64,000 nucleotides of DNA from IMG/VR virus record IMGVR_UViG_3300028903_000001, positions 32,001 to 96,000 of that record; one strand, 5' to 3'. The notes under the pieces are model-generated. The model was not told where the DNA came from, made no database searches, and saw only the letters and a program-made list of their open reading frames with translations. The DNA is from a virus. Its lineage: Duplodnaviria; Caudoviricetes. Shown here piece after piece: positions 1 to 31,148 of this stretch (positions are counted from its first letter, which is position 1; every line of letters begins with the position of its first letter). The position numbers and the translations under genes are program-made.

Positions 1-996
1 GAATTCTTCAGGGGTCTCGTAGCACTCCTGACAATTCACCAACTTAGCATACGCATCGGTCCCGGCGCGTTTCATGCTGCACGCGATGAAGTCTTTGTGC
101 GATACCACGGCTTGCGTAAACGCATTATCCCACTTCGTGGAGGCGAATTGCTGCGACCTGATCATCTTGCCGGTCGGAGTGCCGGGAGCCCAGGTCGAGG
201 CGGAAAAGAAGTTGGGCAGTTCGGGAAGATCGGGGGGCGTCGTGTAGGGCTGCTCGATCTGCGGCGTAACACTGCCGGGGTCCTTCTTGGAGAAGATAGC
301 GTCGAGCTTGGCCCAGACGCTGGGCGGAATGCTCAGAAACGCCTCTGCGATTTTGGCCCACGCGATGTCGGCCCAGGGAATCGCCTTGACCCACGCGGGT
401 ACCGGCTGCCCCTCGTTGATTCCAATCGCTTTCAGGAAAGTGTTGGCACTTACGATGAGCAGAGCAAAGTTCTGCTCGGTCAAGATGCCTTTGGTAACGA
501 TCGCTTCCATCAGCTTGATGGGATCGGTGGGGAAAGCCGACTTGTTCGTCACGGCAGGCAGATTACGCAGGTATGGGAACCATGTGTAGAGTACCTGCGC
601 GATGGGAGTCACAATCGCGGGGGTGGGAGGCGGCGGAAGTGGCCAAGCCGTGGGATGCGTGGCGAGGTAGGCTTGCACCATCGTCGCGAAGCCGTTCATC
701 AAATCGATCGGTACCGCCGGTATGGTAGGGATGCCGAGCCCGAGTCTGGCCTGCCCACCCGGTTCGCGCCAATGCGCGGGAACGCGCAGAAGCTCGCCGG
801 GCTCGAGGCGAGAGAAGCACTTGTACAGCGTCCCCCCGCAGCCGCAAGTCGGCTTGTGCAGGTTCGCCCCGACAAGCTCGGGCCATTTCCCAGCAGGCAT
901 CCCGAACCTGCCACAGATCTGCGTGACATGGTCGCCGGGCTGCACGCGATAAGGATAGCCCTTCACGTAACGAATCACGGGTGGATGGAGTGCCAT
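1..996 (-). CDS. LysM-domain protein, 3' end runs off the window
   Basis: Not in the ORF track because it is open to the window edge. Translation from ATG 996 gives MALHPPVIRYVKGYPYRVQPGDHVTQICGRFGMPAGKWPELVGANL...LEPGELLRVP, a LysM pattern (Y-x-V-x-x-G-D ... AN ... L-x-P-G-x-x-L-x-V-P), then Pro-rich and helical segments. Confidence 0.8.
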   Translation of the reverse strand, partial: MALHPPVIRYVKGYPYRVQPGDHVTQICGRFGMPAGKWPELVGANLHKPTCGCGGTLYKCFSRLEPGELLRVPAHWREPGGQARLGLGIPTIPAVPIDLMNGFATMVQAYLATHPTAWPLPPPPTPAIVTPIAQVLYTWFPYLRNLPAVTNKSAFPTDPIKLMEAIVTKGILTEQNFALLIVSANTFLKAIGINEGQPVPAWVKAIPWADIAWAKIAEAFLSIPPSVWAKLDAIFSKKDPGSVTPQIEQPYTTPPDLPELPNFFSASTWAPGTPTGKMIRSQQFASTKWDNAFTQAVVSHKDFIACSMKRAGTDAYAKLVNCQECYETPEEF

Positions 997-998
997 GA

Positions 999-1652
999 CT
1001 ACTTGCGGCCCCTCTTGGTCAGGTAGTACAGGCCCGCGCCAGCCGCAGCGGTTGCCGCGACGCCAGCGAAGATCCAGCCCGCACTCATGCCTTCACTCGC
1101 GCCGACCTGTTCGACCTCACCGGGCTTGACCACGTTCGGGTTCGGGATGTAGGGAGTCACCTTGCCGCCGCAGTTCAACGACTCGGCGCTGGGAGCGACG
1201 AATTTGCCGAAACCGTACTGCACGACGGGAACCGCGTGTCCGATGCCGACCGGATCGTATCCAGCCGCCTTGAGATCAGAGTTGATGTACTGCTGAATAC
1301 CCTGGCTCGTGATGAGAAGCTCGTAGACATCGAGCCTGCCAAGCACGTAGTAGTCCGATACCTGCCTGGTCTTTTTCGCCCACTTCGCAAACAGCGCAGC
1401 GACTCCGCAGTCGTAGGTGACCGGGGGAGGGGGCGTGACGGCTCCCATCTGCTCAGCAGCGGAGATCTGAAGGATGTGCAGCAGTTCCTGCCCGGTAGCG
1501 AAGAGGGTATACACGATGTACCCATCGACGTCCTCTACGGCAAGAATGACCTCGTTTGCCGCACCGGGGTCGGTGAGATTCACGACCTCCGACATCGCAA
1601 GGGACTCGAGTTCGGAACTATCTGCGACCTTTGTCTTAGCGTATTGCATCAC
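999..1652 (-). CDS. Putative virion membrane protein, C-terminal anchor
   Basis: 217 aa, ends WIFAGVAATAAAGAGLYYLTKRGRK (one TM helix plus basic tail); tightly coupled to its neighbours. Confidence 0.7.
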   Translation of the reverse strand: MMQYAKTKVADSSELESLAMSEVVNLTDPGAANEVILAVEDVDGYIVYTLFATGQELLHILQISAAEQMGAVTPPPPVTYDCGVAALFAKWAKKTRQVSDYYVLGRLDVYELLITSQGIQQYINSDLKAAGYDPVGIGHAVPVVQYGFGKFVAPSAESLNCGGKVTPYIPNPNVVKPGEVEQVGASEGMSAGWIFAGVAATAAAGAGLYYLTKRGRK

Positions 1653-2431
1653 TTATCTCCCCGTGCGGTGCATGGGATCATGTCGTAAATGATTCGGCCT
1701 CCGACGCGAGTATACACTGCTTCGGGGTAGTTGAGCATGAACACGTCTTCTCGCCTGAGTCCTGCCGTCTCGATGACGACGGGTTTGTTCGGTCTGCGGT
1801 CAGGGTCGGTCTGGTAGACCGAGGCGAAGAAGCCAATCGTGATGGGGCCCCTGACCTGGAGGTTCAGGTTTGGCTGGCAGTGGTGCCAGGGAAATCGCAT
1901 GTCCCGCCACGTCCCGAGGCCCGGCACGAGGTCCTTGCCGTAGGGAAGGCCAGAGTTGAGCGGGATATACACAGGCGCAGGCTGACGAGAGATCAACGCC
2001 GAGTCTGTCGTATCGGCGCGATTCGTCGCGTCGGGCGGAAAGATGAAGTCGGTGAAGATCGTTCGGTCCTGCGAATTGGCTTGCAGATTCCGCAGATGCC
2101 AACTCACATTGCCGTCGGGGAAGCTCCAGAGCGGATCCTCGACAGGCACCTCGAGCAGCCACGTCTCGTCTACCTCCCCGTCCTCTGCCGGGACCCTAGC
2201 GCCGATGTAGAGAAGCTGGTGAATCGCATTGATCACGCAGATCGTATCGGCTGGCACCTCGAGGCCGCAGAGTCGAAACAGGTAGCGATTATTCTGGTTC
2301 AACGTGGGGGGCTGCGGCACGGCGATGCCGGTAGAGTTCAAGTCGCCAGGAAGTGGAGACGAGCCTACCCCGACCCGGTTGATATCGTACTGGGCACTCG
2401 AGACCATGCCACGGTCGAGTAGCTCTGCCAT
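1649..2431 (-). CDS. Putative minor capsid/penton-like beta-sandwich protein
   Basis: 260 aa with alternating hydrophobic beta-strand patterns (YLFRLCGLEVP, ICVINAIHQ, VSWHLR, ITIGFFASV); in the same operon as the capsid candidates. The fold is inferred. Confidence 0.4.
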   Translation of the reverse strand: MAELLDRGMVSSAQYDINRVGVGSSPLPGDLNSTGIAVPQPPTLNQNNRYLFRLCGLEVPADTICVINAIHQLLYIGARVPAEDGEVDETWLLEVPVEDPLWSFPDGNVSWHLRNLQANSQDRTIFTDFIFPPDATNRADTTDSALISRQPAPVYIPLNSGLPYGKDLVPGLGTWRDMRFPWHHCQPNLNLQVRGPITIGFFASVYQTDPDRRPNKPVVIETAGLRREDVFMLNYPEAVYTRVGGRIIYDMIPCTARGDK

Positions 2432-2434: not shown

Positions 2435-3064
2435 CTACCGAACCCTCGTCACATCAGCGGCGGGCTGCGGATACATTTCCTCGTTACGAAGCGCACAGAC
2501 CACATCGTCGTAGGAGCAGCCGGGAAGCTCGCAACCGGAAAGCTCGAGACCGACCAGAGACAGCCTTACGATGTACGGCACCTCGTCGGTGAAGGCGCGA
2601 GTATTGACCGCATCGATCCTGATATTGCCGTCCCGGCTCAAGACCCAGTCAAGCTCGATCTTGTTTGTCGAACCTGCCGGTGACGCGAGATGCTCGATGG
2701 GCGTCATCACGTCCGTGATCCAGTTCTTGTCGCCGCGACCCGTGATGCGGAAGGTGATGTCCACGTACGGGTTTCGCTTCGTGAACTCGTCCTGCTGTCG
2801 CTGGAAGAAGGCTCCAACGTTTGCGGTGGGACGGTAGATGGAATAAGTCATGTATTTGACCCAGAACATCTGGTACATAGGCTCCTGAAGCCCAGTGCCT
2901 CGAATGGTCTGGTTTGCGGCGGCGCTATCCCATTGGAACGTCACATTGTAGATGCGTGGCTGAAGCGGCTGGCCGCGAGTCAGCATGTAGGCCAGCTTGG
3001 GATTGTACAATGCGAGCGTGCGGATGCTCTCCGCTGCCTTGTTTACCGCGTTCTGAGACGACAT
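2435..3064 (-). CDS. Putative small single-jelly-roll capsid protein
   Basis: 209 aa, about 8 predicted strands (IYNVTF, MFWVKYMTY, VDITFRITG, WVLSRDGNIRIDAVN, IVRLSLVGLEL), resembling small MCPs of P23-77/SH1-type viruses; AAGGAG RBS upstream. Confidence 0.5.
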   Translation of the reverse strand: MSSQNAVNKAAESIRTLALYNPKLAYMLTRGQPLQPRIYNVTFQWDSAAANQTIRGTGLQEPMYQMFWVKYMTYSIYRPTANVGAFFQRQQDEFTKRNPYVDITFRITGRGDKNWITDVMTPIEHLASPAGSTNKIELDWVLSRDGNIRIDAVNTRAFTDEVPYIVRLSLVGLELSGCELPGCSYDDVVCALRNEEMYPQPAADVTRVR

Positions 3065-3192: not shown

Positions 3193-4479
3193 CTAGTCTC
3201 GGTCTCCGACCGGACCAGCCTCACCGACCGCACTCATGTAATCGTCGATGATCTTGTCGGCATGGTCGGTGGGACCCGAGAGAGCCGAGCAGTTCGCGAA
3301 GGTGCCCTGCATCGGCGCGTAGGTACCATTGAGCAGTTCCTGCATGAGAGCCTTATTGCTCAGCACGCGCTTCCACTGGCTGCACACGCCCTCGCGGACC
3401 TGGAAGCCCTTGAAGCCCAGGCCGACGCGGACCATGCCGCTGGGGATCTGGGTGAAAGCAGCGGAACCCGTATGAGCTTCCCCGTCCTCGAGCAGCGGGA
3501 ACGTGGCAGCAATGTTCGGGATCGGGCCTTGGCAGGCACGGATGACGGCTTCGTCGATCATGCGAGTGACGTAGTCCTCGTCACCCGCGCCGGGCTCCAT
3601 GAACATCTGAATCTTGGTGTTCGTGTCGAGCGGCATCGGGAAGGGCAGACGGTACCACGTCTCGACGGCGGGAAGCGCGTTGGGCTGACCATAGGCGGCA
3701 TCGGTCGCGACCATCCGGTTGGGAACGATCTCGCCGTCGGCGGTCTGCTCGCAGTTGATGGGAACAAAGAAGGGGAGATTGGGAACAGCAGCCGCCCCAT
3801 CGGAAACCGCCGGGCTCTGCGGCATGGCGGGATCGGTTGCCGCGCGAGCGTTGTAGCGACGGGTCAGGAAAAGATGCGGAGTCTTGGCATCGCTCAAGCC
3901 CTGGAACTCGACGCGGGAGCAGGCATTGCCGATATCGATGAGACGCTCGTTCAGGATCGTCTCGAGGCTCGAGTTCGGGCACTTGAATTCGAGGCGCATC
4001 GCGTGCATCAACGCCCACATAAAGCGCCACGTCGCGCCGCCATGGTCGAGTTGAGCCGCGCAGGGCACAGCGCCGCCGCGAGCGCCAGTGAACAGGGCGT
4101 CGAGGAAGGCTGCGTCTTGGCGCAGGTTGATGGGGGAGGCGGGAGTCTCCAAGATCGTGTTCGGGAAGCTGTTGCCTTCGATCACGGTCGAGTAGGGCTC
4201 GGTGTAGCAGAAGACGCAGACGCCGGTCACGATGATCGGGTCGTCGGGCGTGAAGGTCGGAGCGGTCAGGTTGCTACGGCTGAACTTGCGCGTATTGCTC
4301 TCGGCGATCTGGAAGACCTGAACCTCGTTGCCGGTCAGCCAGTTGTAGTCCTCGGCATCGATGGGAAGCTCGATGTTGCGGACAGCGGACAGGAGCGTGG
4401 GGTACACGCTAAGCGGCAGGCGAGACATGGCCAGCATGTCATCGACCGTATTGCACTTGAACATCTTGGGATACGACAT
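3193..4479 (-). CDS. Putative major capsid protein (jelly-roll type with insertions)
   Basis: 428 aa, strongly biased codons, followed by a hairpin. SNLTAP...IIVTGVCVF near the N-terminus and VRVGLGFKGFQVR near the C-terminus resemble the first and last strands of single-jelly-roll MCPs. No HK97-like features noticed. Confidence 0.5.
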   Translation of the reverse strand: MSYPKMFKCNTVDDMLAMSRLPLSVYPTLLSAVRNIELPIDAEDYNWLTGNEVQVFQIAESNTRKFSRSNLTAPTFTPDDPIIVTGVCVFCYTEPYSTVIEGNSFPNTILETPASPINLRQDAAFLDALFTGARGGAVPCAAQLDHGGATWRFMWALMHAMRLEFKCPNSSLETILNERLIDIGNACSRVEFQGLSDAKTPHLFLTRRYNARAATDPAMPQSPAVSDGAAAVPNLPFFVPINCEQTADGEIVPNRMVATDAAYGQPNALPAVETWYRLPFPMPLDTNTKIQMFMEPGAGDEDYVTRMIDEAVIRACQGPIPNIAATFPLLEDGEAHTGSAAFTQIPSGMVRVGLGFKGFQVREGVCSQWKRVLSNKALMQELLNGTYAPMQGTFANCSALSGPTDHADKIIDDYMSAVGEAGPVGDRD

Positions 4480-4548: not shown

Positions 4549-6048
4549 CTATCGACCAGGGATCCTGTAAGGACCCCTTACGTCACTGCGACGAATCACG
4601 AAGTCGCTACGATTCAGGTTGGCGTTGAGAGCGAGTCCGCTCTGCGAGCGCTGAGAGACCTGTTGTTGCTGCGGATCGTAGCTGTAGCGATTCACAGACT
4701 CATTGGGCCACTCGCGCCCCTCGGGGCGACCGGGAACGTTGAGTTCACTGCCGAAATCACTTATCCGTCGCCCAGACTCTGTCTCGACACGAGAGATGGG
4801 AGGCATTTCTCGACGAGAAATGGGCAGAGTCGGCTGCTGGCGAGAGATGCCAGACGGCAGGAACGTCCCATCCGGGTCTCGGGGAGAGAGCTTGATGGGC
4901 GGAACCGGCTCGCGAGGAGACACGGGAGGCTGCGGCTGCTGCGTGATCGGGGGACGTGCATTGACACTGTCCATGCAGTCGGAACCGCCGCCACCCACCA
5001 CATCGAACGGCCAGGGCTGGCACGATTCCCTACCACTGCTCACGTAGTTGCTCGGATCAACAGGCACACGAGTACAACCGTATTTGCCAACGCTACCGGC
5101 TGCCTGGGGGCCGATCATCATTGGCTTACCGAGAAAAGGGCGCAGGTACCCTCGGGGGCCAGCGAGCCCATACTGAAGTCGGTTGGCAAGCTTCGTCTCG
5201 CCCTCCTTGGGCTCCAGAAGCTTGGGCATCAAGTAGTCCTTGATGATCAGGGTGATACCCTTGGCGGCAAAGCCCGTCGCCATACCGGCGAGAAGGTAGG
5301 TGCCCACAACGCTCTTCTTGCGAAGCAGGAACGCGCCAACGCTCAGACCACCAGCCGCAGCGGCTTGCGCAAAAATGCGGATTCCGTCAGCCTTCTTGAC
5401 GATGGCAGCGGTTGCGTCTTGACCGTACTTGACGGCTCCGCTGTCACCCTTGCGGGTCGCGACGTAACGGTCGAGCACGTCGGCACCAGCCAAACCGAGG
5501 ATGAAGCCACCCGCTGCCGAGACGATCGCCTTGGTCTGGTTGGCAGGGTTCTCGCGGATGATCATGCGAGCCTTGCCCTTGCTGCTCATCGAGTAGCGAA
5601 CCGTCTTCTTCTTCGCCTTCTGAAGCCGCTTGCCCACGGTGCGAACGAACCGAGCAGTCTCCTTCGGCATGGGGCGACGACGCTTCTTGGAAGTTGTCAC
5701 CTTGACGGTACGGTTACCACTATCACTCTTCGTGATCTTGGTACCGGCACGCTTGCGACCAGTCTTCGCCTTGGTCGAATTTGCCTTACGGTTCGCTGCG
5801 ATCATCCGCTTGGTAGCGGCGATCTGGGCAGGGGTGCGCTTCTTGCTGGAGCGCCGACGCTTCTTAGCCATTTTCCTAGTCTCCTTACCTGAAGCCGGAG
5901 AAGTCCGGCTCACTCCTCCGACGACAGCCGCCCTCATGCGAACTGCGCCGACACTACGCTTTTTCGGCGAGGACTTCTTCTTGGCCTTCTTGTTGCGGGC
6001 AACGGCCCGCACACCGTGAGCAAAGCCAGCGGGTTCAACGAACGCCAT
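4549..6048 (-). CDS. Lys/Arg-rich putative core (DNA-condensing) membrane protein
   Basis: 499 aa: about 165 aa of very basic sequence (KKRRRSSKKRTPAQIAATKRMIAANRK), then IIRENP, three Gly/Ala-rich hydrophobic helices and a Pro/Gln-rich tail. Confidence 0.65.
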   Translation of the reverse strand: MAFVEPAGFAHGVRAVARNKKAKKKSSPKKRSVGAVRMRAAVVGGVSRTSPASGKETRKMAKKRRRSSKKRTPAQIAATKRMIAANRKANSTKAKTGRKRAGTKITKSDSGNRTVKVTTSKKRRRPMPKETARFVRTVGKRLQKAKKKTVRYSMSSKGKARMIIRENPANQTKAIVSAAGGFILGLAGADVLDRYVATRKGDSGAVKYGQDATAAIVKKADGIRIFAQAAAAGGLSVGAFLLRKKSVVGTYLLAGMATGFAAKGITLIIKDYLMPKLLEPKEGETKLANRLQYGLAGPRGYLRPFLGKPMMIGPQAAGSVGKYGCTRVPVDPSNYVSSGRESCQPWPFDVVGGGGSDCMDSVNARPPITQQPQPPVSPREPVPPIKLSPRDPDGTFLPSGISRQQPTLPISRREMPPISRVETESGRRISDFGSELNVPGRPEGREWPNESVNRYSYDPQQQQVSQRSQSGLALNANLNRSDFVIRRSDVRGPYRIPGR

Positions 6049-6074: not shown

Positions 6075-6614
6075 TCAGGGCCAGACGAAGCCGTGCGCGT
6101 TGATGACGCAACCGTCTGGAAGCGAGATGCGATAGACTCGGTGCGACTTGCCGTCAGCACACCTCGAGGCGCGACGCTGCTTGTACAGGATCGCTGCGCT
6201 CGACACGTCCTTCTTGGTTTCGAAGGGATGCTGATACTTGGAAGCCAGTTCGCCATATCTATCGTAGTAGACTCGCAGAATGCGGTCTACACGATCCCAT
6301 GGACCTTCGGGGATTACAACCTGACCCGAGACGAGCTTGTAGTCGTCGCCCCAGTAGCTGGTGGCGGCTTCATGGACACTGTCGTCCACCTGGCGTACGG
6401 TTGGACCACGAGTGGTGTACGGGCATATGAAGATCTCGCACTTGTCCGCGCATTCTCCCGTCACATCGTGTACTAAACCCCACGATTCCGGGAACTCCAC
6501 CATTCTCCCACTGGCAAGCTCCATGGAGACGATGTCACCACGGACCAGAAGCGGAGTATCGATATTGCAGGCTCCTGGCCTATCTATGCCGTTTCGCTTC
6601 GCTTTTCGAGCCAT
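6075..6614 (-). CDS. Hypothetical virion-module protein
   Basis: 179 aa, AGGAG RBS, basic N-terminus MARKAKRNG. Confidence 0.65.
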   Translation of the reverse strand: MARKAKRNGIDRPGACNIDTPLLVRGDIVSMELASGRMVEFPESWGLVHDVTGECADKCEIFICPYTTRGPTVRQVDDSVHEAATSYWGDDYKLVSGQVVIPEGPWDRVDRILRVYYDRYGELASKYQHPFETKKDVSSAAILYKQRRASRCADGKSHRVYRISLPDGCVINAHGFVWP

Positions 6615-6623: not shown

Positions 6624-7493
6624 CTACCGCACCAAGACACCGGAGCGATAAAGCCTCGGCCTGACAAGATCTGAGCCAGGGAGCACATCGTTGTCGTCCC
6701 ACACAGCAGTTGCTTCCCCCGCTCGGTACACCTGCCCATTCGCAGCCTTGTATGCGAACCCGCTCGCGTGGATATACAAGAGTCCACCCTTGGGCCGATA
6801 GAAGTCGTTCACTCGCTTGTCTGTGAAAGCGTTGAAGAGGTACCAGAAGTACTCTCGCTGCGCATGGCATTCCTGTCCAAGCTTATCTTCTATCGATGAG
6901 TGGAAACAGCCTACCATGGCATTGGGGTCAAATAGCCACTGCGTGTACCATGGCTGTTCATTAGGGACAACGACTCCGCAACTGACAATTGGCCACGACG
7001 AGTAATCATCCCTAGTTAGATCCCTAAGCTCAAGGAGAAGGTCTGAAGGGTCTGCTTGAGACTTGGACATGACTCGACCATTGCATTCGGTGTATGTCTT
7101 GATCGATTTCAGTTCAGCGTGCACACCAACTCCTTTTATGAGACCTATTTGTACTACACCACCAGTACACGTCCATTGGTTGCTATTTTCGTCAAAGAAA
7201 GCCTTGACGCTCTTGTAGTAGCTATACGACTTCTCCCATGTATCGAATGTTCTAAACGCAAAGTAGTCAAGCTCGTTTCGCTTGCCATCTTTATTCGTCA
7301 TGGCATTTATCATTACAGCGAACGGACCATCTTCTCCATAAAGGCCTCCAGCAATGTCAGCGCTGGCCAGGGTCGTCTCGTCTGGTTGCTTGATCGTTAG
7401 ATCAGACGCGGCACCCTTGTCTTCCTTCTCGTCTCGAGTCAGAAGCCAGATTCCAAGCGCCGCGCCACCAATTGCCAGTATCGGAAGTAGCAT
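6624..7493 (-). CDS. N-terminally anchored membrane protein (paralogue family A)
   Basis: 289 aa, starts MLLPILAIGGAALGIWLLTRDEKEDKG; shares F-x-T-W-x-x-x-Y-x-Y-Y-K and W-T-C-x-G-G with 8520..8915. Confidence 0.75.
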   Translation of the reverse strand: MLLPILAIGGAALGIWLLTRDEKEDKGAASDLTIKQPDETTLASADIAGGLYGEDGPFAVMINAMTNKDGKRNELDYFAFRTFDTWEKSYSYYKSVKAFFDENSNQWTCTGGVVQIGLIKGVGVHAELKSIKTYTECNGRVMSKSQADPSDLLLELRDLTRDDYSSWPIVSCGVVVPNEQPWYTQWLFDPNAMVGCFHSSIEDKLGQECHAQREYFWYLFNAFTDKRVNDFYRPKGGLLYIHASGFAYKAANGQVYRAGEATAVWDDNDVLPGSDLVRPRLYRSGVLVR

Positions 7494-7495
7494 CC

Positions 7496-8492: not shown

Positions 8493-8519
8493 GCCCGCGA
8501 TGATCGCATCAGTCCTGTC

Positions 8520-9067: not shown

Positions 9068-9069
9068 GT

Positions 9070-9561: not shown

Positions 9562-9568
9562 CGAAGTC

Positions 9569-14832: not shown

Positions 14833-14839
14833 GTCATCC

Positions 14840-15490: not shown

Positions 15491-15492
15491 GG

Positions 15493-16389: not shown

Positions 16390-16392
16390 GGC

Positions 16393-21035: not shown

Positions 21036-21038
21036 GCT

Positions 21039-24000
21039 CTACTCCAGCACGCAGACGAGAGTTGCCGTGAGGTCGTCTACGCTGCCTCCAGCAATTGCCA
21101 CGGTCCGAATATCCACGATGTCGTGCCTCGCTATTCGGTTGATCGCCTGAGTCGTTCCCACTTCCTTGTCTGAGAGATAGATTGTGTCAGCCACAGTCAC
21201 GGAGGTGAGCGAAGAAAACAAGTCACCCGTAGGCTCTACCTCGTTTCGAATCGTAGCTTTCCACGTCGCGTCAACGCCTCCCCCAGTTATCGTGTCCGCG
21301 ATGAAGAGTTGCTGCACGACACGAGAGGGGCCAGCAGATAGTGGAATGTACTGGTTGTTGGTGTCGTGGACGATGGAGGTGCCAGTACCAATGTTGCCTC
21401 CCACGAATGTGGACACCTGAATCACCCTGGAGGCGTCACCATACCAGAGGAAAGAAGCGGTCGCGTCAATGTCGCAGCCCGCCCAGATAATCTCGCTGCC
21501 GGAAAGCCCAGTGATGACGCCCCAACGGAAAAACTCCCATGCGCTGTCGATGTCTGCTCCAACCAACGCGTCTATCGTAATCGTACCTCCGAGACCAGAC
21601 CCATTGGCCTCCGTGACGTTGTAGGTGCCCGCTACCGTGTACACCTCGCTCTGTCCCACGAGGTTCTCAAGGTTCCCAGCCGAATCCCTGTCGGCGTAAA
21701 TGTCCACGCGATAGTCACCGCCCCCGATGACCACGTCTCGGAAGTACAGACGCCCACTCGCCTCGACGATGATGTCCTGAAGCCCGGTTAGGCTCATCGC
21801 GGTGATTCGTGTCGCGCCATCCGCCCAGACGTAAATGCCATCTGGCATGAAGAAGCGGATGGGCATTCCCACCTCGAAGTAGACCCGTGGGTCCGTCTCC
21901 GTGTCGATATTGCCGGTCCCCGCGTTGTAGCTCCAGGCAAGCGGAGCCGGGATCCAACCCTTACTCACCTTCGTACCCGTCGTGGTGCCCCTTATCGAAA
22001 GGCTAGCGTTGCCGGTCACCGTAGGCATCTCTGGAACTTGGGAGTTGATGACCTCGGACGTAACTGTCCCGACTGATGCATTCAACTCAAGCGAGTCAAC
22101 GCGGACACCATCGGCATTGAGGTCCACCGTACTGTCGGCGTAGTCGGAGTTGATCTCGATGGCGCTTACGTCAGAATTCTTCAAGTCCGCGTTGATTGCA
22201 ACGTTGTCACTTCCGGTGATCGTGACATTAGGATCCATCGTGACGCCCGCCAACTCCGCGTTGATGGGCACAGTCGATGTATCCGTGTCCGCGCCGATGT
22301 TGATTTGGCTATCGTCCATCCGGCCAGACAGGTATACGTTCAACTCCTCCACAACCGCAGCGTCGGGGCGGAAGTTGAGAGTCGATTCTGTGATTTCGCA
22401 GGAGGCATCGGTCGTAAAATCGAGCGCCGGGGTGTCAGCAGTTATGGTTGTGCCGGTGATCTTCGCGGAGTAAAGCGCGAATAGCATCCGGGTGAAGCCG
22501 GTTGGGAGCGTCCCGGTCGCAATCGCGATGATCTGGTCCCAGAAATCGGAGGTGCCTCGCTTGAAGACGTTGCGAAGTCGAACTTCTCCACAATCACTGA
22601 AAACTATGGTACCCCCCGTGGCCATGAAGCTAACATTTTGAAGCCTCACATACCCGCACTTTACGAAGTTCCAGCCAGCAGCGGCAACACCATCACTGAT
22701 GTCGTCAACGTTTTCTATCGTCAATCCATCTGGCGTTGTGTTGAAATACCCGTCGGCAGTGCCTCCCCCCTCGAACGCAACATATGTCGCTGCTCCCTGG
22801 TCATACGTGAGTTCCGCGAGCCGAAAGCGATTTATCGCGGTAGCGCTTATCCTGCCGAGGTATCCACCACTGAACGTGAGCGTCGTCACGCCCCTGCCAG
22901 AGCCCACGATCGAGATGTCGGTGAGCGTGTCTGGGATGACCAGGCCAGTTTCGGTGAACGTTCCGGGACCCAGCTTTACCACGTCCCCGTCCGATGCGTC
23001 GGTGAGTGCCGCCGCAACCGTCGCGTACGGCTTCGTCAGTAGCCCCCTCACAGCCGTTGCGTCGTCGCCTGCCGTGGAGACGTACAGGAACGCGGCCTCG
23101 CCAATCGCAAGGTCGTCCAGCGTATCCATGCACTTCTGGAGCGTATCGTCGAGCGCACTCAGGTTCCCGTCAAACGCTGTGGTATCAGCAGAGATTGCCG
23201 AGGCGGGATGCGAGTCGGGCTCGCTGCGACCGGCAAGGCTGTTGTGGTCCGTCGCGACGAAGCCGGTGCCGGGAATAGGAGCCGTGTTACGAAGGTCGGC
23301 GTACTCGTAGATGTACGCATTTACACTGTTCGCATAGCCGGTGCTGCAACGGTAGATCAGCTTCCAGATCGGCTTCAACTCATTGGCAAAGAAAGTTCCG
23401 AGGTTCAGATCTGAAAAACTCGCGTCCTGCGCATCCACTGCGCTGGCGTAGTCACCCTGCCCCATTATGGCGAAAACTGGCTCCACGAGATAGCCTGCTC
23501 CACCAGGGTCGGCCTGCCCCACATTGTTCGTGGCACAGATCCACATCACAGCATAATCGCCATTCGTGCTGATGTCGGAAAGGATCCAGTTGCCGCCGCT
23601 GAACGTATTGAATTGCGGAAGACGCAGGTTCGTTACCGCGTATATAGGAAAGTTCGTCACTGCGAGCTTCGCCCACGTCCCAGTCGCCCCGGTTCGGTAG
23701 AAGATGGGGAAGCGACCAGGGGTAGCGCCTGAGCCAAGCTCCTGCTCGAACATGCCGGAAGGTGCCGCGCTCCGAGTGATGGGCACCTCGATGTCCTCGT
23801 CCCAGATCGTGCCGCCACTGATCGTGATTTGCGCGTCGCCATCCGCACCACCAGAACCTGTTGCGACCCTGGCAAGACTGAGTCCGGTCTCGAACCGAGT
23901 GCCGATGGTGTAGTGCAGATACTGGTGCGTGGCCCATGGCATGTTGATGCCGTGACGCTCGTCCAAGACCGCAATCGCGTTGTTTGCCGCGTTGAGGTAG

Positions 24001-24437
24001 ACGAGTGCGACGAGCGTCGTCTTGAATCCGTAGGGCAGCGCGGCCCCATTCGAAAGCACGCCACCGTTGTACCAGAACCACCAGAGCCCAGGCGCGGGCA
24101 CGGCGATTGTGGACGACTGGTCCGTGACGAAGGTGTGTTTCTGCACACTGCCGCCACCCACCTCGAAGACCTCGAAGCTCGTGGCAGGCGCTTTGATCGC
24201 CATGGTCAGCGTCTTGGTTGCGTCGTCCCAGGTCAGGATCGTGTCGTCCCGGTCCACGACTCCCCTGGGATACGCGGCTTCGATAGGCGTACCAACCTCG
24301 ACGCCATCGATGGTCTCAAGCGCTCTCTGCACATCGGTGTCGCTGGGGCCGAGGATGGAGACGAACGCCGACGTGTCAACGACCGTGTTGACTGCCTCAA
24401 CGAAGCCTGAGCAGCAGCGGAGCATGGACGAACGCAT
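21039..24437 (-). CDS. Large fibre/spike protein with pectin-lyase-like beta-helix (depolymerase candidate)
   Basis: Probable start MRSSMLRCC (TGATG coupling); LYVSTAGDDA...KPYATVAAAL...GDVVKLGPGTF is a beta-helix cap; fibre motif DT.AF...L...D...Q....T.D occurs twice. Confidence 0.7.
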   Translation of the reverse strand: MRSSMLRCCSGFVEAVNTVVDTSAFVSILGPSDTDVQRALETIDGVEVGTPIEAAYPRGVVDRDDTILTWDDATKTLTMAIKAPATSFEVFEVGGGSVQKHTFVTDQSSTIAVPAPGLWWFWYNGGVLSNGAALPYGFKTTLVALVYLNAANNAIAVLDERHGINMPWATHQYLHYTIGTRFETGLSLARVATGSGGADGDAQITISGGTIWDEDIEVPITRSAAPSGMFEQELGSGATPGRFPIFYRTGATGTWAKLAVTNFPIYAVTNLRLPQFNTFSGGNWILSDISTNGDYAVMWICATNNVGQADPGGAGYLVEPVFAIMGQGDYASAVDAQDASFSDLNLGTFFANELKPIWKLIYRCSTGYANSVNAYIYEYADLRNTAPIPGTGFVATDHNSLAGRSEPDSHPASAISADTTAFDGNLSALDDTLQKCMDTLDDLAIGEAAFLYVSTAGDDATAVRGLLTKPYATVAAALTDASDGDVVKLGPGTFTETGLVIPDTLTDISIVGSGRGVTTLTFSGGYLGRISATAINRFRLAELTYDQGAATYVAFEGGGTADGYFNTTPDGLTIENVDDISDGVAAAGWNFVKCGYVRLQNVSFMATGGTIVFSDCGEVRLRNVFKRGTSDFWDQIIAIATGTLPTGFTRMLFALYSAKITGTTITADTPALDFTTDASCEITESTLNFRPDAAVVEELNVYLSGRMDDSQINIGADTDTSTVPINAELAGVTMDPNVTITGSDNVAINADLKNSDVSAIEINSDYADSTVDLNADGVRVDSLELNASVGTVTSEVINSQVPEMPTVTGNASLSIRGTTTGTKVSKGWIPAPLAWSYNAGTGNIDTETDPRVYFEVGMPIRFFMPDGIYVWADGATRITAMSLTGLQDIIVEASGRLYFRDVVIGGGDYRVDIYADRDSAGNLENLVGQSEVYTVAGTYNVTEANGSGLGGTITIDALVGADIDSAWEFFRWGVITGLSGSEIIWAGCDIDATASFLWYGDASRVIQVSTFVGGNIGTGTSIVHDTNNQYIPLSAGPSRVVQQLFIADTITGGGVDATWKATIRNEVEPTGDLFSSLTSVTVADTIYLSDKEVGTTQAINRIARHDIVDIRTVAIAGGSVDDLTATLVCVLE

Positions 24438-25855
24438 CAGATCGCACCCTTCTTGCCCTGCGCGGTCCACGTCGCAGGATTGTCGCTGTCAAATGTGATA
24501 CAGTAACTGTCGTACAGAAGCGGCGTATCCACGGCAAGAACCATGTCTGCCGCCGAGGTCAGGCTGATGACCCCACCGTAGAGGTCAGCAGTGATCTCGC
24601 TGTAATTACGCAGTGAGAGGTTCGGCTGCGTCGTCTCGTTGCTCGCATAGATCTTTACGCTGATCGTGGCACCAGCCGTCGCTGTGGCGAGGATGATGGT
24701 CCAGTACGGGAACGTGTCGCCACTGAAGTAGTGCGCGACTAGCGCGTCGGTCGCCACGGCTTGCGAGAAGTCGAAGGGCTCCGTGTTGTCGAAGCTCTGC
24801 ACGACCGGCACGACCTTGTCCGCGTCGGTCACCGAGTCGTAGCTGCGGCTCTGCACGATGAGCATGCGAAGCGCGTTCAGCAGCGCGTATCCCGCATCAC
24901 CATCGGTAAGGGGGACAGCTTCATAATCGTCGATGTACTTGCCACCGATCAGGACTGGGTTTGCCGTCGCCGGATCAGCGTCAGCGTCGATGCCCTGGAT
25001 CGATGGCGAAGAGCTTGGGTCGGTGACGATGAGTCGACCTTCAGAATCGAGGCGAAGGTGGCGATAGACGCCAGGGGCGAGCGGTCCCGGATCGGCAGCC
25101 TCCACAATCGCTCGAGGCTCCGTAACCAGCATCCGCAGCAGGTTCAAAAGCGCGGTACCAATATCGCCATCGTCGAGCGGAGACAGCGTTGGGTCGGCGA
25201 TGAATCTGCCACCGACCGGGACCGGGTTACGGGTTAGCGCGTCTCCATCTACATCGCTTCCCTGCGCGCTTACAATGACACGGCCCTGGTTGTCGAGCCT
25301 GAGTCTGTAGAGCAGTCCATCGGCGTATGGGCCGGGATCCGCGTCCCTCGTGATTGCGATGTCGAGCGGAAGCGTGAGAGGGGCCGCGCCCTCAAGCGTG
25401 GTCCCCTCGATAGAGACGGGCTCTTCAATCGCACCTCCCCCGCCACCCGCGCCAGCCGTGGCAGACGAGGCGGCAAACTCATAGTCACCAGCCGGTGGCT
25501 GGTCCTCGAGCGAGACCACGATTGCCACGTCCATGCGAGACGAGGCCCTGGAGTCCTTACGGTCTATGATGTTGGGAAGCGGAATGAAATGAACCTCACC
25601 GGCAGGAAGCGTGTGTGCATCGGCGAACAGGTACCACTCCTCGGTCTGCTCGTCCCAGAGATAGAGACTGACAGAGGCATCCGGTGCCAGAGCGGGACCG
25701 TTGTAGGCTAGCGCAATCGACTCGAGCGGCTCGGTGTGCGGGCCATACTGCGGCGCGTGAAACACGTTGTCGAGCAGGAGATAGGCCGCATCGGTCGGGA
25801 CCGCGTCTGTGCCGATGGTAGCATCGGTTCGAGTAAAGACGTGTTCGAGTTTCAT
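24437..25855 (-). CDS. Virion protein with internal ~75-aa tandem duplication
   Basis: ADPGP...LRLD..GR.IV...NPV..GG..I.D....PL.DGD.G.ALLN.LRML occurs twice. Confidence 0.7.
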   Translation of the reverse strand: MKLEHVFTRTDATIGTDAVPTDAAYLLLDNVFHAPQYGPHTEPLESIALAYNGPALAPDASVSLYLWDEQTEEWYLFADAHTLPAGEVHFIPLPNIIDRKDSRASSRMDVAIVVSLEDQPPAGDYEFAASSATAGAGGGGGAIEEPVSIEGTTLEGAAPLTLPLDIAITRDADPGPYADGLLYRLRLDNQGRVIVSAQGSDVDGDALTRNPVPVGGRFIADPTLSPLDDGDIGTALLNLLRMLVTEPRAIVEAADPGPLAPGVYRHLRLDSEGRLIVTDPSSSPSIQGIDADADPATANPVLIGGKYIDDYEAVPLTDGDAGYALLNALRMLIVQSRSYDSVTDADKVVPVVQSFDNTEPFDFSQAVATDALVAHYFSGDTFPYWTIILATATAGATISVKIYASNETTQPNLSLRNYSEITADLYGGVISLTSAADMVLAVDTPLLYDSYCITFDSDNPATWTAQGKKGAI

Positions 25856-25858: not shown

Positions 25859-26284
25859 TTACTTGCTTCCTTTGACGACGAGTCCAACCATCACTGCGGC
25901 CATGGCAGCCATGACGAGTGGAGGTATCCAAGGCATCGAGCCACCGCTCACCTCTACCTCATGCCTCGGAACCGGAGCGGTGCCGGAAATGGGTCGGATC
26001 CAGAACAGTTTCGTTCGATTATCAAGCACCAGCGGCTGACCATCTTTGCCTGTCCATGTCGCTTCGGCCCAGAACTGAGAGACGAAGTCAGCCTTGGTCT
26101 CTTTCCGATCGTCATCGGGCCATTCCTTGGGAAGCGTTTCCCAATCATCCCAGACCCGGACGTCAGCGAACCCAACCGACTCGAGCCCCTTCTTGACCTG
26201 GGACGAGCCAGCGAATGCCGAGGCTTCACCAGTAACGACAAGTGAGCCGCGATACCTTGTCCCAGTGCTTAGCACAAATGCCAT
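25859..26284 (-). CDS. Membrane protein, C-terminal anchor
   Basis: 141 aa, ends WIPPLVMAAMAAVMVGLVVKGSK. Confidence 0.7.
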   Translation of the reverse strand: MAFVLSTGTRYRGSLVVTGEASAFAGSSQVKKGLESVGFADVRVWDDWETLPKEWPDDDRKETKADFVSQFWAEATWTGKDGQPLVLDNRTKLFWIRPISGTAPVPRHEVEVSGGSMPWIPPLVMAAMAAVMVGLVVKGSK

Positions 26285-26291
26285 ATTTGCC

Positions 26292-27101
26292 TCAGAGGAT
26301 GACGCAGCCGCTGCCGCCGACTTCCTTACCGGCCCAACGCGGAATTAGGATGTTATCGATGACTCGCGGCGCAATGACCTTGGACTGATAGATATGGTCG
26401 GTGCATGTCTTTTCCATATTGCGGTAGCCAAGAAGCCAAAGCCCACCCACCTTGTACTGGAACTTGCCAGGAATCTTGGTGTAGGTATACTTGCCTATCA
26501 GTTTCTTTACACCATTTACCTCCTGATAGCACAGTGTCGGTATGGGCGCATGATCCGCGTCTACCAGCGCACTGATTGTCACTGGATCCATGTAGACCGG
26601 AGACTGCATGACATGGTCGAGAATCTCGAGTGAGGCTTGTTCCGTGGAGATGGAAGCCTGGGGCGGCTTAGGCGTCTCACTGCTAGTCACGACGAGGCAA
26701 TGCTCGGTGGGTGCGATGTTTGGATTGCCAGAGCTACCGAAGGCGGCGAGCCTCGCATACCGCTTCCAGGCAGGCCACATCAGATGGATGCCGTCGCAGG
26801 CCAAGACGAAGTCTGGCGCGCCACCGTCAGGGCTCGAGAGAAGAACCGCAACGCCGATACAAGTCTCGGAAAAGCCGAGAATGGCAACCCTGTTTCCAGG
26901 CTTATCTAAGCCATGATTCTTTAGCGCCTGCTTGATGGGACGCTCGCCATAGGCAGATTTGATAGCATTGCTGTAGGCGTCAAAGTTTCTACCATTGCCC
27001 TTTGGCATGGTAATCTCTGCCGTGTCGGATCTAAAGCTAGCCCGCCAGTTCTTCCCGAACCAGGAGTGAAGCTCGCCGAAGTGAAGGATGATGTCTGTCA
27101 T
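26292..27101 (-). CDS. Putative alpha/beta-hydrolase-fold protein
   Basis: VAILGFSETC nucleophile-elbow-like motif, LACDGIH, late DH..Q His. Confidence 0.5.
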   Translation of the reverse strand: MTDIILHFGELHSWFGKNWRASFRSDTAEITMPKGNGRNFDAYSNAIKSAYGERPIKQALKNHGLDKPGNRVAILGFSETCIGVAVLLSSPDGGAPDFVLACDGIHLMWPAWKRYARLAAFGSSGNPNIAPTEHCLVVTSSETPKPPQASISTEQASLEILDHVMQSPVYMDPVTISALVDADHAPIPTLCYQEVNGVKKLIGKYTYTKIPGKFQYKVGGLWLLGYRNMEKTCTDHIYQSKVIAPRVIDNILIPRWAGKEVGGSGCVIL

Positions 27102-28600
27102 TCCTCTACCGTGCGCCTGCGGCTCTTGTTCCAGTCGAGAAGCGCCGCGATGCCGTATACCGCCACGCCTCCCATCGCGATGACCATCAGAGCGGTCAAT
27201 GCAGACTCTGCGGTCTTAGCTAGCTTGCTAAACGGGCTCACCTCTTCCTTCTTGACATCGATCTCTGCCTTGTCTCTCGCCTGGCTACTGAGTTCGCTTT
27301 GAATCCTGAGCGCTTCCTTGGTAGCTTCTTCTCGACTCATGCCCCCAGCTACAAGCTTTTCGGTCTGCTCAGTGACAAAGTCCTGAGCCCTCCTCATCGA
27401 CGCCTTGTCGAGGTGCGCCTTCACGACGTCGCAAACCTCTTTGACCGATAGGTACTGAATGACGGAACCGATGATGACTGCGCCGACGACGAGCCCGACA
27501 TATGCCGCACCCATCGTTCCTGGAGGCGTTATCGTGGTATCCTCGATGACGAATCGCTTCGTCGCTTCGTCAAAGCCTACCCTGGGCTCACCCGGCTTGC
27601 CTAGAATGAGAGAACTGGACTGATCGACGTCATAGGCCAGCCTGCGCTTGTCGGTCGCGCCGTCGTAGCCGTAGTTGATCATTTTGGGTATCCACTTCTC
27701 CATATCACCGTAGTAGTCCTCGCTAGCCTGCGGCCAGGACTCGCTGATGATCGAATACCCCATCATCTCACAGGCCAGTTTGTACTGCCTGTGTTGGAAC
27801 CTCACGTCGTAAAACGAGTCGGCGAGATCCGAGGTGATGCGTTTGACCTGTTCCCTCATATATTCGTAGAACGACTCTGTGATTCCGGTTAGACCCGGCT
27901 CGGCTTGTCCCGCTAGCATTCCTCCCGGCCTGCCAACTCCAACGAATCTGCCCGTGTTGTCACTAGATCCCAAGCCCGACGGGACCCTAGCGGCATCGAC
28001 GACACCGTTTTTATCCGCCAAGACCTTACCTCCGGGAACCGCGATGAAGGTCTCCCGCGTCGGCTTGGAAGCGGTGCCGAATGGATCGCTTGTCGAGGGA
28101 TCGCACCTAACCCATACGCCCCGCTTCTCGTCTCTCACCGCCGCGAGAACATGCGTATGCTGGCGATGCGGCTCGTAGCTATGAGCGACGACGCAGCCTT
28201 CAATCCCCACGCTTTCAATCGCGGAAAGGAAGGCAACAACGAGACCGTCACAGTCTTCGCCCATGAACACGAGACCGTCGCAGCCCTCGAGCGTGCAAGC
28301 GGCGCTGGGGATGAATTCACCATCGATAGGGTCTTCGATGTAGGGACGCTCTTTTCGAAGACGTTCGAGGATAGCCTTTGCCTGAGCCATCTTGTCGGCC
28401 TGGAATCCACCCAGCCCGCCGCGAACAATGGTCTCCCTGGCCCAAGCCACGGTCTTTGGGTCCATGCGTCCCTTCTCGACGCGGTCCACGATTTCGGACA
28501 GGGAGACCCTGATCCCTTTTTCGCCCCTGGGGTGGGGGCGGCTCACGGTCTTGGGACCAGCGGTTCGGTTAGGTTGTTTTCGCGAGGGCTCGTTGCGCAT
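27098..28600 (-). CDS. Transglutaminase-like (Cys-His-Asp) protein with two C-terminal TM helices; candidate maturation protease
   Basis: GEDCDG (Cys), HTHVLA (His), WVRCDPS (Asp); hydrophobic helices YVGLVVGAVIIGSVIQYL and ALMVIAMGGVAVYGIAALL. Confidence 0.8.
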   Translation of the reverse strand: MRNEPSRKQPNRTAGPKTVSRPHPRGEKGIRVSLSEIVDRVEKGRMDPKTVAWARETIVRGGLGGFQADKMAQAKAILERLRKERPYIEDPIDGEFIPSAACTLEGCDGLVFMGEDCDGLVVAFLSAIESVGIEGCVVAHSYEPHRQHTHVLAAVRDEKRGVWVRCDPSTSDPFGTASKPTRETFIAVPGGKVLADKNGVVDAARVPSGLGSSDNTGRFVGVGRPGGMLAGQAEPGLTGITESFYEYMREQVKRITSDLADSFYDVRFQHRQYKLACEMMGYSIISESWPQASEDYYGDMEKWIPKMINYGYDGATDKRRLAYDVDQSSSLILGKPGEPRVGFDEATKRFVIEDTTITPPGTMGAAYVGLVVGAVIIGSVIQYLSVKEVCDVVKAHLDKASMRRAQDFVTEQTEKLVAGGMSREEATKEALRIQSELSSQARDKAEIDVKKEEVSPFSKLAKTAESALTALMVIAMGGVAVYGIAALLDWNKSRRRTVEE

Positions 28601-30803
28601 AGGCTATACCGTCCAGGAGGCTTTTCGATCCCCCCGACGATACGACGGGCTTTGCGCTAGGTCCATGTTGCGTAGGTACTTTTTTCTCCGTCCACGCCGG
28701 TTTACTGGGAGGCGACGGGCTCGAGACCGTGACGGGAACAGGGGCTGGGGGAGACGTGGCGACGGTGACAGCGTTCCCGCTCTGGAGCGCATCGACCGTG
28801 GACTGCGACGGCGCGAGCCGCCTCGAGAGCATGTCGATCTGTTGCGCCTGAAGCTGCTGGTTTTCCATGAGTTGCTGCTGCATCTGCTCAAACATGCGAT
28901 AGGTGTCCCGCATCTCTTCCTGTCTACGAGCATCTTTCACATGCTGCCTCAACTCACCAAGCGCCTTGATACCTGGCTCAATCCACGATTTGACATTGTC
29001 GGCGTTGAGAGCCATCATGGTGAAGAAATCGACAGCTTTACCGTCCTTGTCGGTCACGTACCGAAACGGTCCCATCTCAAATACCTTGAGCGGAGAGCCG
29101 TCTTCCGCCTTGGTCTCGGACTGGACCAAAGCCTGTTGTGGCGGCGGTTGCTGCATCCACTGAGGCATTTGAGGCGGGGGCGGAACGGGTGGGGATGATG
29201 GTGAGAGCTTTTCGAACATCTCTTTTAGCTCTGCCATCTGCTTCATCGTCTTTCGCATCTCGCTAAGCGAGTCCTTTGGCTCGGGCGGCGGCGGCTGCTG
29301 TTGTTGCTGTTGCGGCATCCCCATCTGAGCCCACTGCGCCATTTGCTGCTGCATCTGAATCTGCTGCTGCTGCGCCTCGGTGGCCTTCAGTCTCTCATCC
29401 ACCAATCTGGCGATTTCCTCCATGCTCATCATTTGAGGCTGCTGCATAGGCTGTTGCTGCATCGCGGCTTGAGCCTTAGCCTCCTCGAGTTGCTGCTTCA
29501 TGCTATGGAGCGACCCGTTGAGAGTTGACAGCATTTGCCAGACCTGGAACTGCTGCTGATACGAGGCTTGCGTACTTGCGCTTCTCATATCGTGGTTGTT
29601 CCGCTTCTGAAGCTTCTTGATCTGGCGGTTCAATCCCTTGATCGTCCCCTCTAGCTGAAGTATTCGATAGTCGGGTTGTGGCTGCTGCGGCTGGTATGGG
29701 TTGTGACCCATTCTACTGGGAGGAGGCGGCGGAATATCCTCGATGAATTCCTCCTCTTCCTCCTCGTCATCGTCGTCATCGTCAACTTGATCCTGCGGAG
29801 GCGGCGGCGGCTGCATCCACGGCATTTGCTGCGGCCATCCCGGCATTTGTGGCTGTGGCTGTGGCCATTGCGGCTGCCCCCATTGCTGCTGTGGCTGCTG
29901 CGGAGGCGACTGTTGAAGCTGTGGTTGGGCCCAACCCTGCTGCTGCGGTGAAAGCCATTCCTGCGGTGGATGCTGCCTTTGCGGTTGCGGCTCGCCCCAT
30001 TGCTGCTGCGGTTGCTGAACCTGCTGCGGAGGATCCTGCCATTGTTGGGCTCGAGGCTGCTGCTGCTGAGACCGAGACTGCTGCGGGTCCTGCCACTGCT
30101 GCTGCGGTTGCTGAGCCTGCTGCGGATCGGAGGGCAGGGGAACACCTCTGGCTTGTGCCTCGATTGTTTTCCACTCGATCCTTCGCTTTGGGTTGTCACC
30201 CAGTTTGAGATAGCAAACCGCAGCAATGCTTCTGCCGGTAGAGTACATGATGATCTTGTACTTCTGCGGAGTGCCGTCCCATTGATTGTTGCAGATATAC
30301 TCACTGAGCTTACCCCAGTTTGGAACCTGATGAAGCGGTATCACTCCAACATGGTGGGCCACCGGCTGCTCAAGTGAGATCTCAACCTCGGACGACGAGC
30401 CGAAAAGAGTCATGCACTTCTCGGAGCCATAGTTGTATTTGATGCCGTCTTGACCATGCCAGGGAACCCTGGCGTGATTCTTTCGCATCTCGATGACGCG
30501 GTTAGCGGTCTGATTCTGAAGCCTGGCTTCGTCGTCGAGACCGTTTAGAAGCTCTTGTCGCTCCTCGTCCTCAGTCATCGGTCTATCACGCTGGACGGGT
30601 GCGGATAGCTCCTGTCGCTGCGGCTCTTCGTCGTAGCTATCCAACTCCTCATCTTCATCTTCATCTTCATCCTCATCCTCGTTTTCCTCCACGAGGATTT
30701 CCTCTTCCCTCTTCTTTCTCGCCCTACCCGCTACGGCTGGCTTATTCCTCGGTCGTCCCCTTCGCTTCATACCCGCCAGTGATTGATTCTGCTTTCGAGC
30801 CAT
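28569..30803 (-). CDS. Gln/Pro-rich, acidic low-complexity protein
   Basis: 744 aa; poly-D/E tracts, repeated QQQW(Q/G)xP units, coiled-coil; AGGAG RBS. Confidence 0.75.
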   Translation of the reverse strand: MARKQNQSLAGMKRRGRPRNKPAVAGRARKKREEEILVEENEDEDEDEDEDEELDSYDEEPQRQELSAPVQRDRPMTEDEERQELLNGLDDEARLQNQTANRVIEMRKNHARVPWHGQDGIKYNYGSEKCMTLFGSSSEVEISLEQPVAHHVGVIPLHQVPNWGKLSEYICNNQWDGTPQKYKIIMYSTGRSIAAVCYLKLGDNPKRRIEWKTIEAQARGVPLPSDPQQAQQPQQQWQDPQQSRSQQQQPRAQQWQDPPQQVQQPQQQWGEPQPQRQHPPQEWLSPQQQGWAQPQLQQSPPQQPQQQWGQPQWPQPQPQMPGWPQQMPWMQPPPPPQDQVDDDDDDEEEEEEFIEDIPPPPPSRMGHNPYQPQQPQPDYRILQLEGTIKGLNRQIKKLQKRNNHDMRSASTQASYQQQFQVWQMLSTLNGSLHSMKQQLEEAKAQAAMQQQPMQQPQMMSMEEIARLVDERLKATEAQQQQIQMQQQMAQWAQMGMPQQQQQQPPPPEPKDSLSEMRKTMKQMAELKEMFEKLSPSSPPVPPPPQMPQWMQQPPPQQALVQSETKAEDGSPLKVFEMGPFRYVTDKDGKAVDFFTMMALNADNVKSWIEPGIKALGELRQHVKDARRQEEMRDTYRMFEQMQQQLMENQQLQAQQIDMLSRRLAPSQSTVDALQSGNAVTVATSPPAPVPVTVSSPSPPSKPAWTEKKVPTQHGPSAKPVVSSGGSKSLLDGIAYAQRALAKTT

Positions 30804-30815
30804 ATCGTCTCCTAA

Positions 30816-31148
30816 TTAGGGGATTGGGGGAGCGGGGACAACTACGCCTTCCAAGACGGTCCCAGGTAGACGTGTCGAGAAAGCCGACTTGAAAGCACCG
30901 AGAAGTGACTGGTACTTCAAGTCGTCGGTAGGGTTGGCCGCATCGAATTCTGCCGTGAGCGTGACCCGGATCGTCCTGAGAATCTGCCCTGGTACCAACT
31001 CGCTCGTCGCGTCGGCAGCCAGGGTGAAGTCCAAAGCTCTCTCACTCAGGATATCCACAATGGGTACAGCCGCGACTTTCGCCAAAGCGGTGGCGGTTTT
31101 CATCGGAGTTCCTGAGAAAGTGAATATGATTCTGTATTCAGCGTCCAT
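30816..31148 (-). CDS. Hypothetical protein
   Basis: 110 aa, operon-coupled. Confidence 0.6.
   Translation of the reverse strand: MDAEYRIIFTFSGTPMKTATALAKVAAVPIVDILSERALDFTLAADATSELVPGQILRTIRVTLTAEFDAANPTDDLKYQSLLGAFKSAFSTRLPGTVLEGVVVPAPPIP

Follow-up and report, generated by a model that had tools for sequence, protein, structure and literature searches.

What kind of particle is built by the virion genes of IMG/VR virus record IMGVR_UViG_3300028903_000001? The stretch analyzed here (the window, 64,000 nucleotides) comprises bases 32001-96000 of one 119,895-bp contig, and an initial annotation had read its first 31 kb as the structural region of a very large tailless virus with an internal membrane and jelly-roll capsid proteins, related to the P23-77 and SH1 type. 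In the account we consider probable, the contig belongs to a tailless, membrane-containing, motor-less bacterial virus with a jelly-roll capsid that encloses condensed DNA, as SPV1 does; that it has an internal membrane and is tailless we infer from gene content. As best explained, the window carries the greater part of the virion module of an activated-sludge virus that infects bacteria and is not a tailed phage. Scale makes the case of interest, because this particle design is so far known only from viruses at most a third of this genome's size.

The late block and its five-gene core

The virion genes form a late block of ~40 kb on one strand, encoding ~42 proteins, nearly all without a Pfam or PHROG match. 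As first described, the long open reading frames (ORFs) running from window position 31148 to 1 are all on the minus strand, and this minus-strand block extends ~9.6 kb leftward on the contig, beyond the window. Five of its genes keep one order in all relatives: those for a 179-aa protein (6075..6614), a basic 499-aa protein with three transmembrane (TM) segments (4549..6048), and 428-, 209- and 260-aa proteins (3193..4479, 2435..3064 and 1649..2431), each on the minus strand. The five-gene order was seen at at least 12 loci, with distant members on 64-110-kb contigs. Close and distant loci also hold a wider order, consisting of an SLT gene (in most), the 179-aa gene, a gene for a basic membrane protein of ~400-600 aa, the 428-type gene, genes for proteins of ~210 aa and ~265 aa, and genes for anchored proteins.

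The 179-aa protein, which has no family match, is 29-93% identical in all relatives and is always encoded two genes upstream of the 428-type gene. Immediately upstream of the 428-aa gene, a position kept in all relatives, lies the gene for the 499-aa protein; the initial annotation had called this a basic core protein, and basic it is (isoelectric point [pI] 11.2): K+R account for 33% of residues 1-170, and behind these lie hydrophobic segments at 173, 223 and 251. It is a candidate DNA-membrane link or core protein. For the 428-aa protein, 21 homologue clusters were found at 37-84% identity, and profile searching expanded the family to 94 representatives (50% clustering level), whose lengths fall in nearly every case between 350 and 500 aa. 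Among 78 members searched with Pfam, zero families were hit; family profiles built from 21 and from 78 members found no match among PDB sequences, and 50,697 GenBank phage records searched by tblastn with the 428- and 260-aa proteins gave none either. Within IMG/VR only this record holds the 428-aa protein, and no relative is present there. Profile alignment with hhalign gave no sign of paralogy between the 428 and 209 families.

Three smaller observations attach to these genes. One relative (L015) carries tandem 428-type paralogues at 2272-3393 (374 aa) and 3400-4671 (424 aa), a duplication within the candidate capsid family. The 209- and 260-aa ORFs share a reading frame, with only TAG plus one codon between them (window 2431-2437), such that read-through would fuse both; this layout is probably coincidence, since a close relative (L013) has the two genes in different frames. 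Three activated-sludge metatranscriptome libraries contain contigs at least 99% identical over window 3331-4632 and 5167-6017 (the 428- and 499-aa genes), which is compatible with expression in situ; such contigs neither prove transcription nor rank genes.

AlphaFold models of the 428-, 209- and 260-aa proteins are beta-rich, and modeling shows at least two of the five core products to be predicted jelly rolls. The suggestion that the whole triad folds in this way thus stands clearly for the 209-aa protein (a single jelly roll, candidate small capsid protein) and at moderate confidence for the 428-aa protein (candidate large capsid protein, with a jelly-roll core and long insertions), while the 260-aa protein, conserved and third of the triad, is beta-rich only; it is a possible vertex (penton) protein. 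Nearly all of the top 50 structural neighbours of the 428-aa model are viral capsid proteins, including D13, PRD1 P3 and P23-77 VP17. In P3, D13 and PBCV-1 Vp54, the alignment with this model (pLDDT 64) spans ~150 residues and takes in just the first jelly roll, and a lead from the ESM Atlas pointed to the PM2 P2 and PRD1 P3 families. Scores of the fold matches are middling overall. The best BFVD match, I1ZBH9 (211 aa, probability 0.98), carries no name in the tables.

Around this core the block is rich in membrane proteins. Terminal membrane anchors occur in ~19 of the 42 proteins, and the window itself has 10 clear cases (496, 217, 289, 282, 131, 163, 308, 314, 141 and 500 aa) besides the three-TM 499-aa protein, so the original estimate of at least a dozen single-helix membrane proteins was about right. 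Membrane-anchored lytic enzymes had also been proposed, and two were found. The SLT lytic transglycosylase (282 aa, 7496..8344, minus strand; Pfam SLT E 8e-7; PHROG transglycosylase/endolysin), conserved in relatives, ends in a C-terminal hydrophobic helix followed by basic residues, and an M15 peptidase encoded in the late block likewise has a C-terminal anchor. Because these and LysM-like proteins are directed at peptidoglycan walls, the host is taken to be bacterial.

We read the 428-, 209- and 260-aa products as shell proteins because theirs are the best-conserved and invariably linked genes of the virus lineage, because the neighbours of the 428-aa model are overwhelmingly capsid proteins, and because two complete lineage genomes (see “Genome completeness and the search for a packaging motor”) offer no other capsid candidate. 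The same jelly rolls could instead be surface, carbohydrate-binding or spike proteins of a different particle, pleomorphic, enveloped or vesicle-borne, made by a virus or a virus-like element. Jelly-roll sandwiches are common outside capsids, with PHM, nucleoplasmin, CBM and tail-fibre rows at equal Z, and a block with very many membrane proteins, no packaging motor and two PcfJ-like proteins encoded in the genome would suit such a particle. This alternative is nonetheless unlikely: it sits poorly with the capsid-dominated neighbours of the 428-aa model and with a triad that is the most conserved part of a diverse lineage, as expected of shell proteins, and no relaxase, type IV secretion system or partition genes were seen in the scanned proteins.

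Genome completeness and the search for a packaging motor

The genome had been put at 64 kb or more; its actual size is 119.8 kb. The first 127 bases of the contig match its last 127 exactly, and IMG/VR files the contig as a virus that has direct terminal repeats and that CheckV scores as 100% complete; it is therefore a complete genome of ~119.8 kb, circular or terminally redundant. Near-identical DNA is present in activated-sludge and wastewater metagenomes.

All ORFs of at least 185 aa on the contig were compared with Pfam and/or PHROGs, and six-frame hidden Markov model (HMM) searches were run in addition. The absence of terminase, portal, HK97 capsid, tape measure and baseplate families, first noted for the 31 kb of virion genes, holds for the whole 119.9-kb contig, where no terminase, portal or HK97 capsid gene was found anywhere. 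Six-frame searches of the whole genome with Terminase_6N, TerL_ATPase, FtsK_SpoIIIE, Pox_A32, AAA_10, Phage_capsid and Phage_portal were negative, as were comparisons with PHROG head, portal and tail families, and the scanned ORFs included no tail family, DNA polymerase or packaging ATPase. The packaging ATPase that could not be seen in the window is thus missing genome-wide, in both its FtsK/HerA and A32-type forms. Only three real genes have a canonical Walker A motif: those for DnaB, a 149-aa AAA_33 kinase and a 393-aa AAA+ protein. Families that did match in Pfam or PHROGs are SNF2 helicase, ResIII/DEAD helicase, AAA+, PD-(D/E)XK nuclease, DnaB, DUF5131 and GP88.

A second genome allows these absences to be viewed across the lineage. 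The relative in question, filed in a 'Gemmatimonadaceae' metagenome-assembled genome (MAG), is a 73,663-bp contig whose ends overlap exactly over 141 bp, and it is on that account a second complete circular genome, of 73.5 kb. It shares only virion-module genes with the genome studied here, namely six proteins by BLASTP at E <=1e-5 (the 179-aa, basic/TM, 209-type, 260-type, 500-aa and 269-aa proteins); its 428-type match just misses that threshold at E 1.6e-5. The contig has no ORF with a canonical Walker A motif and no FtsK match, no Terminase_6N match was found in its MAG, and the 233 kb of related loci have no P-loop ORF in the vicinity of the core. Relatives (G001:C433 = L025-L028; L021-L023) are filed in MAGs of Parcubacteria, Planctomycetales, Nitrospira and Gemmatimonadaceae; labels scattered across four phyla point to mis-binning rather than to the host. 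Such genomes escape marker-based virus classification and end up binned in bacterial MAGs of unrelated phyla.

Could the same tailless jelly-roll membrane particle still be filled by a pump, through an unrecognised ATPase, for which a translocase of the host and the 393-aa AAA+ protein are candidates? Packaging depends on an ATPase in most of the known icosahedral dsDNA viruses that contain a membrane (PMC8328091, PMC8812541), and this genome does encode an AAA+ ATPase. Its gene, however, sits in the replication region with a helicase on one side and a nuclease on the other, and its product has no BLASTP homologue in the complete 73.5-kb genome, whose ORFs include none with a canonical Walker A motif. 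Together with the lack of P-loop ORFs near the core of related loci, this leaves a cryptic pump looking quite improbable to us.

Less probable still, and in our judgment very unlikely, is a tailed phage so divergent that profile searches missed its terminase, portal, HK97 capsid and tail proteins. The proteome is almost wholly dark, the large fibre-like proteins (BNR, beta-helix-like) look like tail fibres, and structure models cover only part of the ORFs of 385-472 aa, all of which would leave room for such a phage. The large terminase subunit, though, is normally the easiest phage protein to detect, and two complete genomes yielded none to Pfam, PHROGs or six-frame searching. A long helical tape-measure-like ORF is absent, and the conserved core is jelly-roll rather than HK97-like. 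Measured against Caudoviricetes, the complete genome thus differs at the HMM level in large terminase subunit, HK97 capsid and portal, none of which was found. A conjugative plasmid, as the SLT and PcfJ genes might suggest, was rejected, there being no VirB4, VirD4 or relaxase-like ATPase.

A proposed assembly and its place among known viruses

The initial annotation is borne out in outline, but the kinship with P23-77 and SH1 that it proposed is not established: there is no sequence similarity to solved capsid proteins and no FtsK/HerA-type ATPase in either complete genome. That packaging ATPase defines Helvetiavirae (P23-77 in Matshushitaviridae; SH1, HHIV-2 and HCIV-1 in Simuloviridae and Sphaerolipoviridae). 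Profile searches of PDB chain sequences, among them the group's capsid proteins, and tblastn with the 428- and 260-aa proteins against GenBank phages gave no match, and the gene order here is large-then-small. P23-77- and SH1-type genomes are a few tens of kb, far smaller than this one.

Portogloboviridae, represented by SPV1, offer a closer parallel in design, with a jelly-roll fold (here predicted), no motor, circular DNA and a virus-borne CRISPR in common. The differences are considerable. The genome is six-fold larger (119.8 kb vs ~20 kb), the implied host is a bacterium from activated sludge whereas SPV1 infects hyperthermophilic archaea (Sulfolobales), there is no sequence similarity, a Cas12f-like effector stands beside the array here, and there is in addition a much larger second jelly-roll protein (428 aa). 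SPV1 is described as enclosing pre-condensed DNA during assembly (PMC8459092, PMC8812541).

By predicted architecture, the nearest bacterial analogue is SSIP-1, a tailless orphan phage that has two types of capsid protein, an internal membrane, a circular 43.8-kb genome and hardly any database similarity (PMC6356626). Similarity in sequence was not detected: against 8-25 SSIP-1 proteins, hmmsearch with four family profiles gave bit scores <4 and hhalign of the 428- and 209-family profiles reached a best probability of 9.9%, none of it significant. Compared with Tectiviridae and other double jelly-roll phages (PRD1, PR772, PM2), the moderate-confidence 428-aa model matches one jelly roll of P3 only, though the protein may have a second roll, and the scanned ORFs include no protein-primed family B DNA polymerase, nor any DNA polymerase, and no packaging ATPase P9. 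Prokaryotic double jelly-roll viruses have genomes <20 kb (PMC8812541), and no account of a tailless or jelly-roll phage larger than ~50 kb turned up in the literature searched.

A particle of the following kind can be envisioned. Its icosahedral shell would be formed by two jelly-roll proteins, the 428-aa one with its large insertions and the compact 209-aa one; the 260-aa protein might add a further shell or vertex component. Beneath the shell would lie a lipid layer packed with terminally anchored proteins, and the basic three-TM 499-aa protein, well placed for this because its gene is directly upstream of the capsid genes, may tie the DNA to the membrane. The large acidic BNR protein and the weakly pectate-lyase-like or beta-helix-like proteins could serve as vertex spikes, and opening the peptidoglycan on the way in or out would fall to the anchored SLT and M15 enzymes. 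The DNA would probably be condensed by basic proteins first and enclosed while the particle assembles, with no pumping into a ready-made shell; given that both complete genomes lack a motor, this is the simplest model. Scaling from the ~100-nm particle and 44-kb genome of SSIP-1, we estimate that the capsid would be well over 100 nm across.

Several considerations weigh against this picture. The virion, its lipid layer and its shell proteins are predicted here from genes, and no sequence link to any known capsid protein, SSIP-1 included, emerged from profile, tblastn, hmmsearch or hhalign comparisons. Peptidylglycine monooxygenase and nucleoplasmin match the 209-aa jelly roll as well as capsid proteins do, the confidence of the 428-aa model is only moderate, and the fold of the 260-aa protein was barely probed. 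The genome is 2.7 times that of SSIP-1, the largest membrane-containing phage named in the literature searched. To our knowledge, motor-less enclosure of a 120-kb genome is without precedent.

If the tailless, motor-less assembly is nevertheless correct, a 120-kb virus of jelly-roll and membrane build with its own CRISPR-Cas would stretch the presumed capacity of this architecture, motor-less DNA enclosure could serve genomes >100 kb, and large tailless viruses would not be limited to eukaryotes. Motor-less jelly-roll viruses (SPV1, FLiP) have been argued to represent the state before capture of an FtsK-like ATPase (PMC8812541); a diverse motor-less bacterial lineage would make that idea on virus origins testable. 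More tentatively, and with rather less confidence than we place in the particle itself, we suggest that the relatives may form a widespread uncultured bacterial virus lineage with genomes of 73 to at least 120 kb, a jelly-roll family of its own, a protein-rich internal membrane and no motor, a several-fold enlarged bacterial counterpart of the archaeal portogloboviruses and probably a new high-rank taxon.

Other genes of the late block and the non-structural region

Among 30 window-block proteins compared with PHROGs (most also with Pfam), the only real matches were SLT and BNR, the rest being blank. All of the block genes described next are on the minus strand. At the left edge (1..1652) are genes for two C-anchored proteins with homologues in relatives, one of 496 aa, Cys-rich and crossing the window's edge, and one of 217 aa. 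Both sides of the SLT gene (6624..10495) are occupied by genes for the N-anchored paralogues of 289, 131 and 163 aa, which have in common an N-terminal hydrophobic helix followed by an acidic stretch, and for the C-anchored 308-aa protein. Next come a 472-aa protein, 50% identical in a relative (L007), and one of 385 aa that is basic and shows an HExxH motif in its translation (10506..13078); neither has a family match.

The region at 13646..17169, also without a family match, holds a duplicated cassette of small proteins and acidic proteins of 298 and 330 aa, together with a 258-aa protein. The duplication is marked by a 125-nt direct repeat whose copies, at window 13653-13777 and 15309-15433, are 97% identical. 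The cassette proteins are likely host-recognition parts, and the 330- and 298-aa paralogues may be alternative host-recognition modules. Beyond them (17203..25855) stand large acidic proteins of 963, 314, 1143 and 472 aa, the last with an internal repeat, all of pI 4.1-4.6; these are candidate spikes or fibres. The 963-aa protein (17203-20094) is BNR/sialidase-like, with a BNR_2 domain (Pfam E 1.6e-11), and an 80-aa stretch of the 1143-aa protein is common to the family of a weakly pectate-lyase-like 436-aa protein.

The block starts (25859..31148) with genes for proteins of 110, 744, 500, 269 and 141 aa (the last C-anchored), again without family matches. The 744-aa protein, Q/P-rich with acidic runs and coiled-coil-like, is a possible scaffold. 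The 500-aa protein (27098-28600) is a membrane protein with a Cys-His-Asp motif; its earlier description as transglutaminase-like finds no HMM support and has as its sole basis a Cys...His...Asp spacing read by eye. It and the 269-aa protein are kept even in the distant 73.5-kb relative. With phmmer, the PDB gave no meaningful match to the 500-, 963- or 1143-aa protein, and a scan for promoters and terminators stayed at chance level.

Left of the window, a 1236-aa basic protein (contig 15138-18848, minus strand; pI 10), without a family match, has an Ala/Lys-rich, histone-H1-like region at residues ~100-300 (27% K+R) and is a candidate for a further DNA-condensing protein. Outside the virion block and on the opposite strand, window 40041-40874 (+) encodes a second SLT-domain protein (277 aa, Pfam E 1e-8).

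The DnaB, tRNA and CRISPR-Cas genes that had been reported are all present, the tRNA being a tRNA-Arg. The CRISPR locus has 22 repeats of 36 nt in two arrays, with 13 and 9 copies at window 46058-46989 and 47827-48421 (+) and spacers of ~36 nt; ORFs listed within the arrays are spurious. Adjoining them is the gene for a 664-aa protein with a Cas12f1-like TNB domain (48602-50596, minus strand), and no Cas1 or Cas2 was seen. Spacers compared with the genome and related loci gave only 15-nt chance matches, and the repeat had no exact match in GTDB genomes.

Farther along, window 51641-53365 (minus strand) encodes a 574-aa TnpB/IS605 OrfB-like protein with HTH_OrfB_IS605, OrfB_IS605 and TNB domains; another 574-aa ORF at contig 116916-118640 (minus strand), without a PHROG match, may be a second copy of this gene. 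The non-structural part of the genome also encodes two PcfJ-like proteins (window 32613-34334; contig 9519-10364) and four pentapeptide-repeat proteins, one with DUF5758, among them those at window 35038-35862 and 37420-38823 and at contig 98123-98806.

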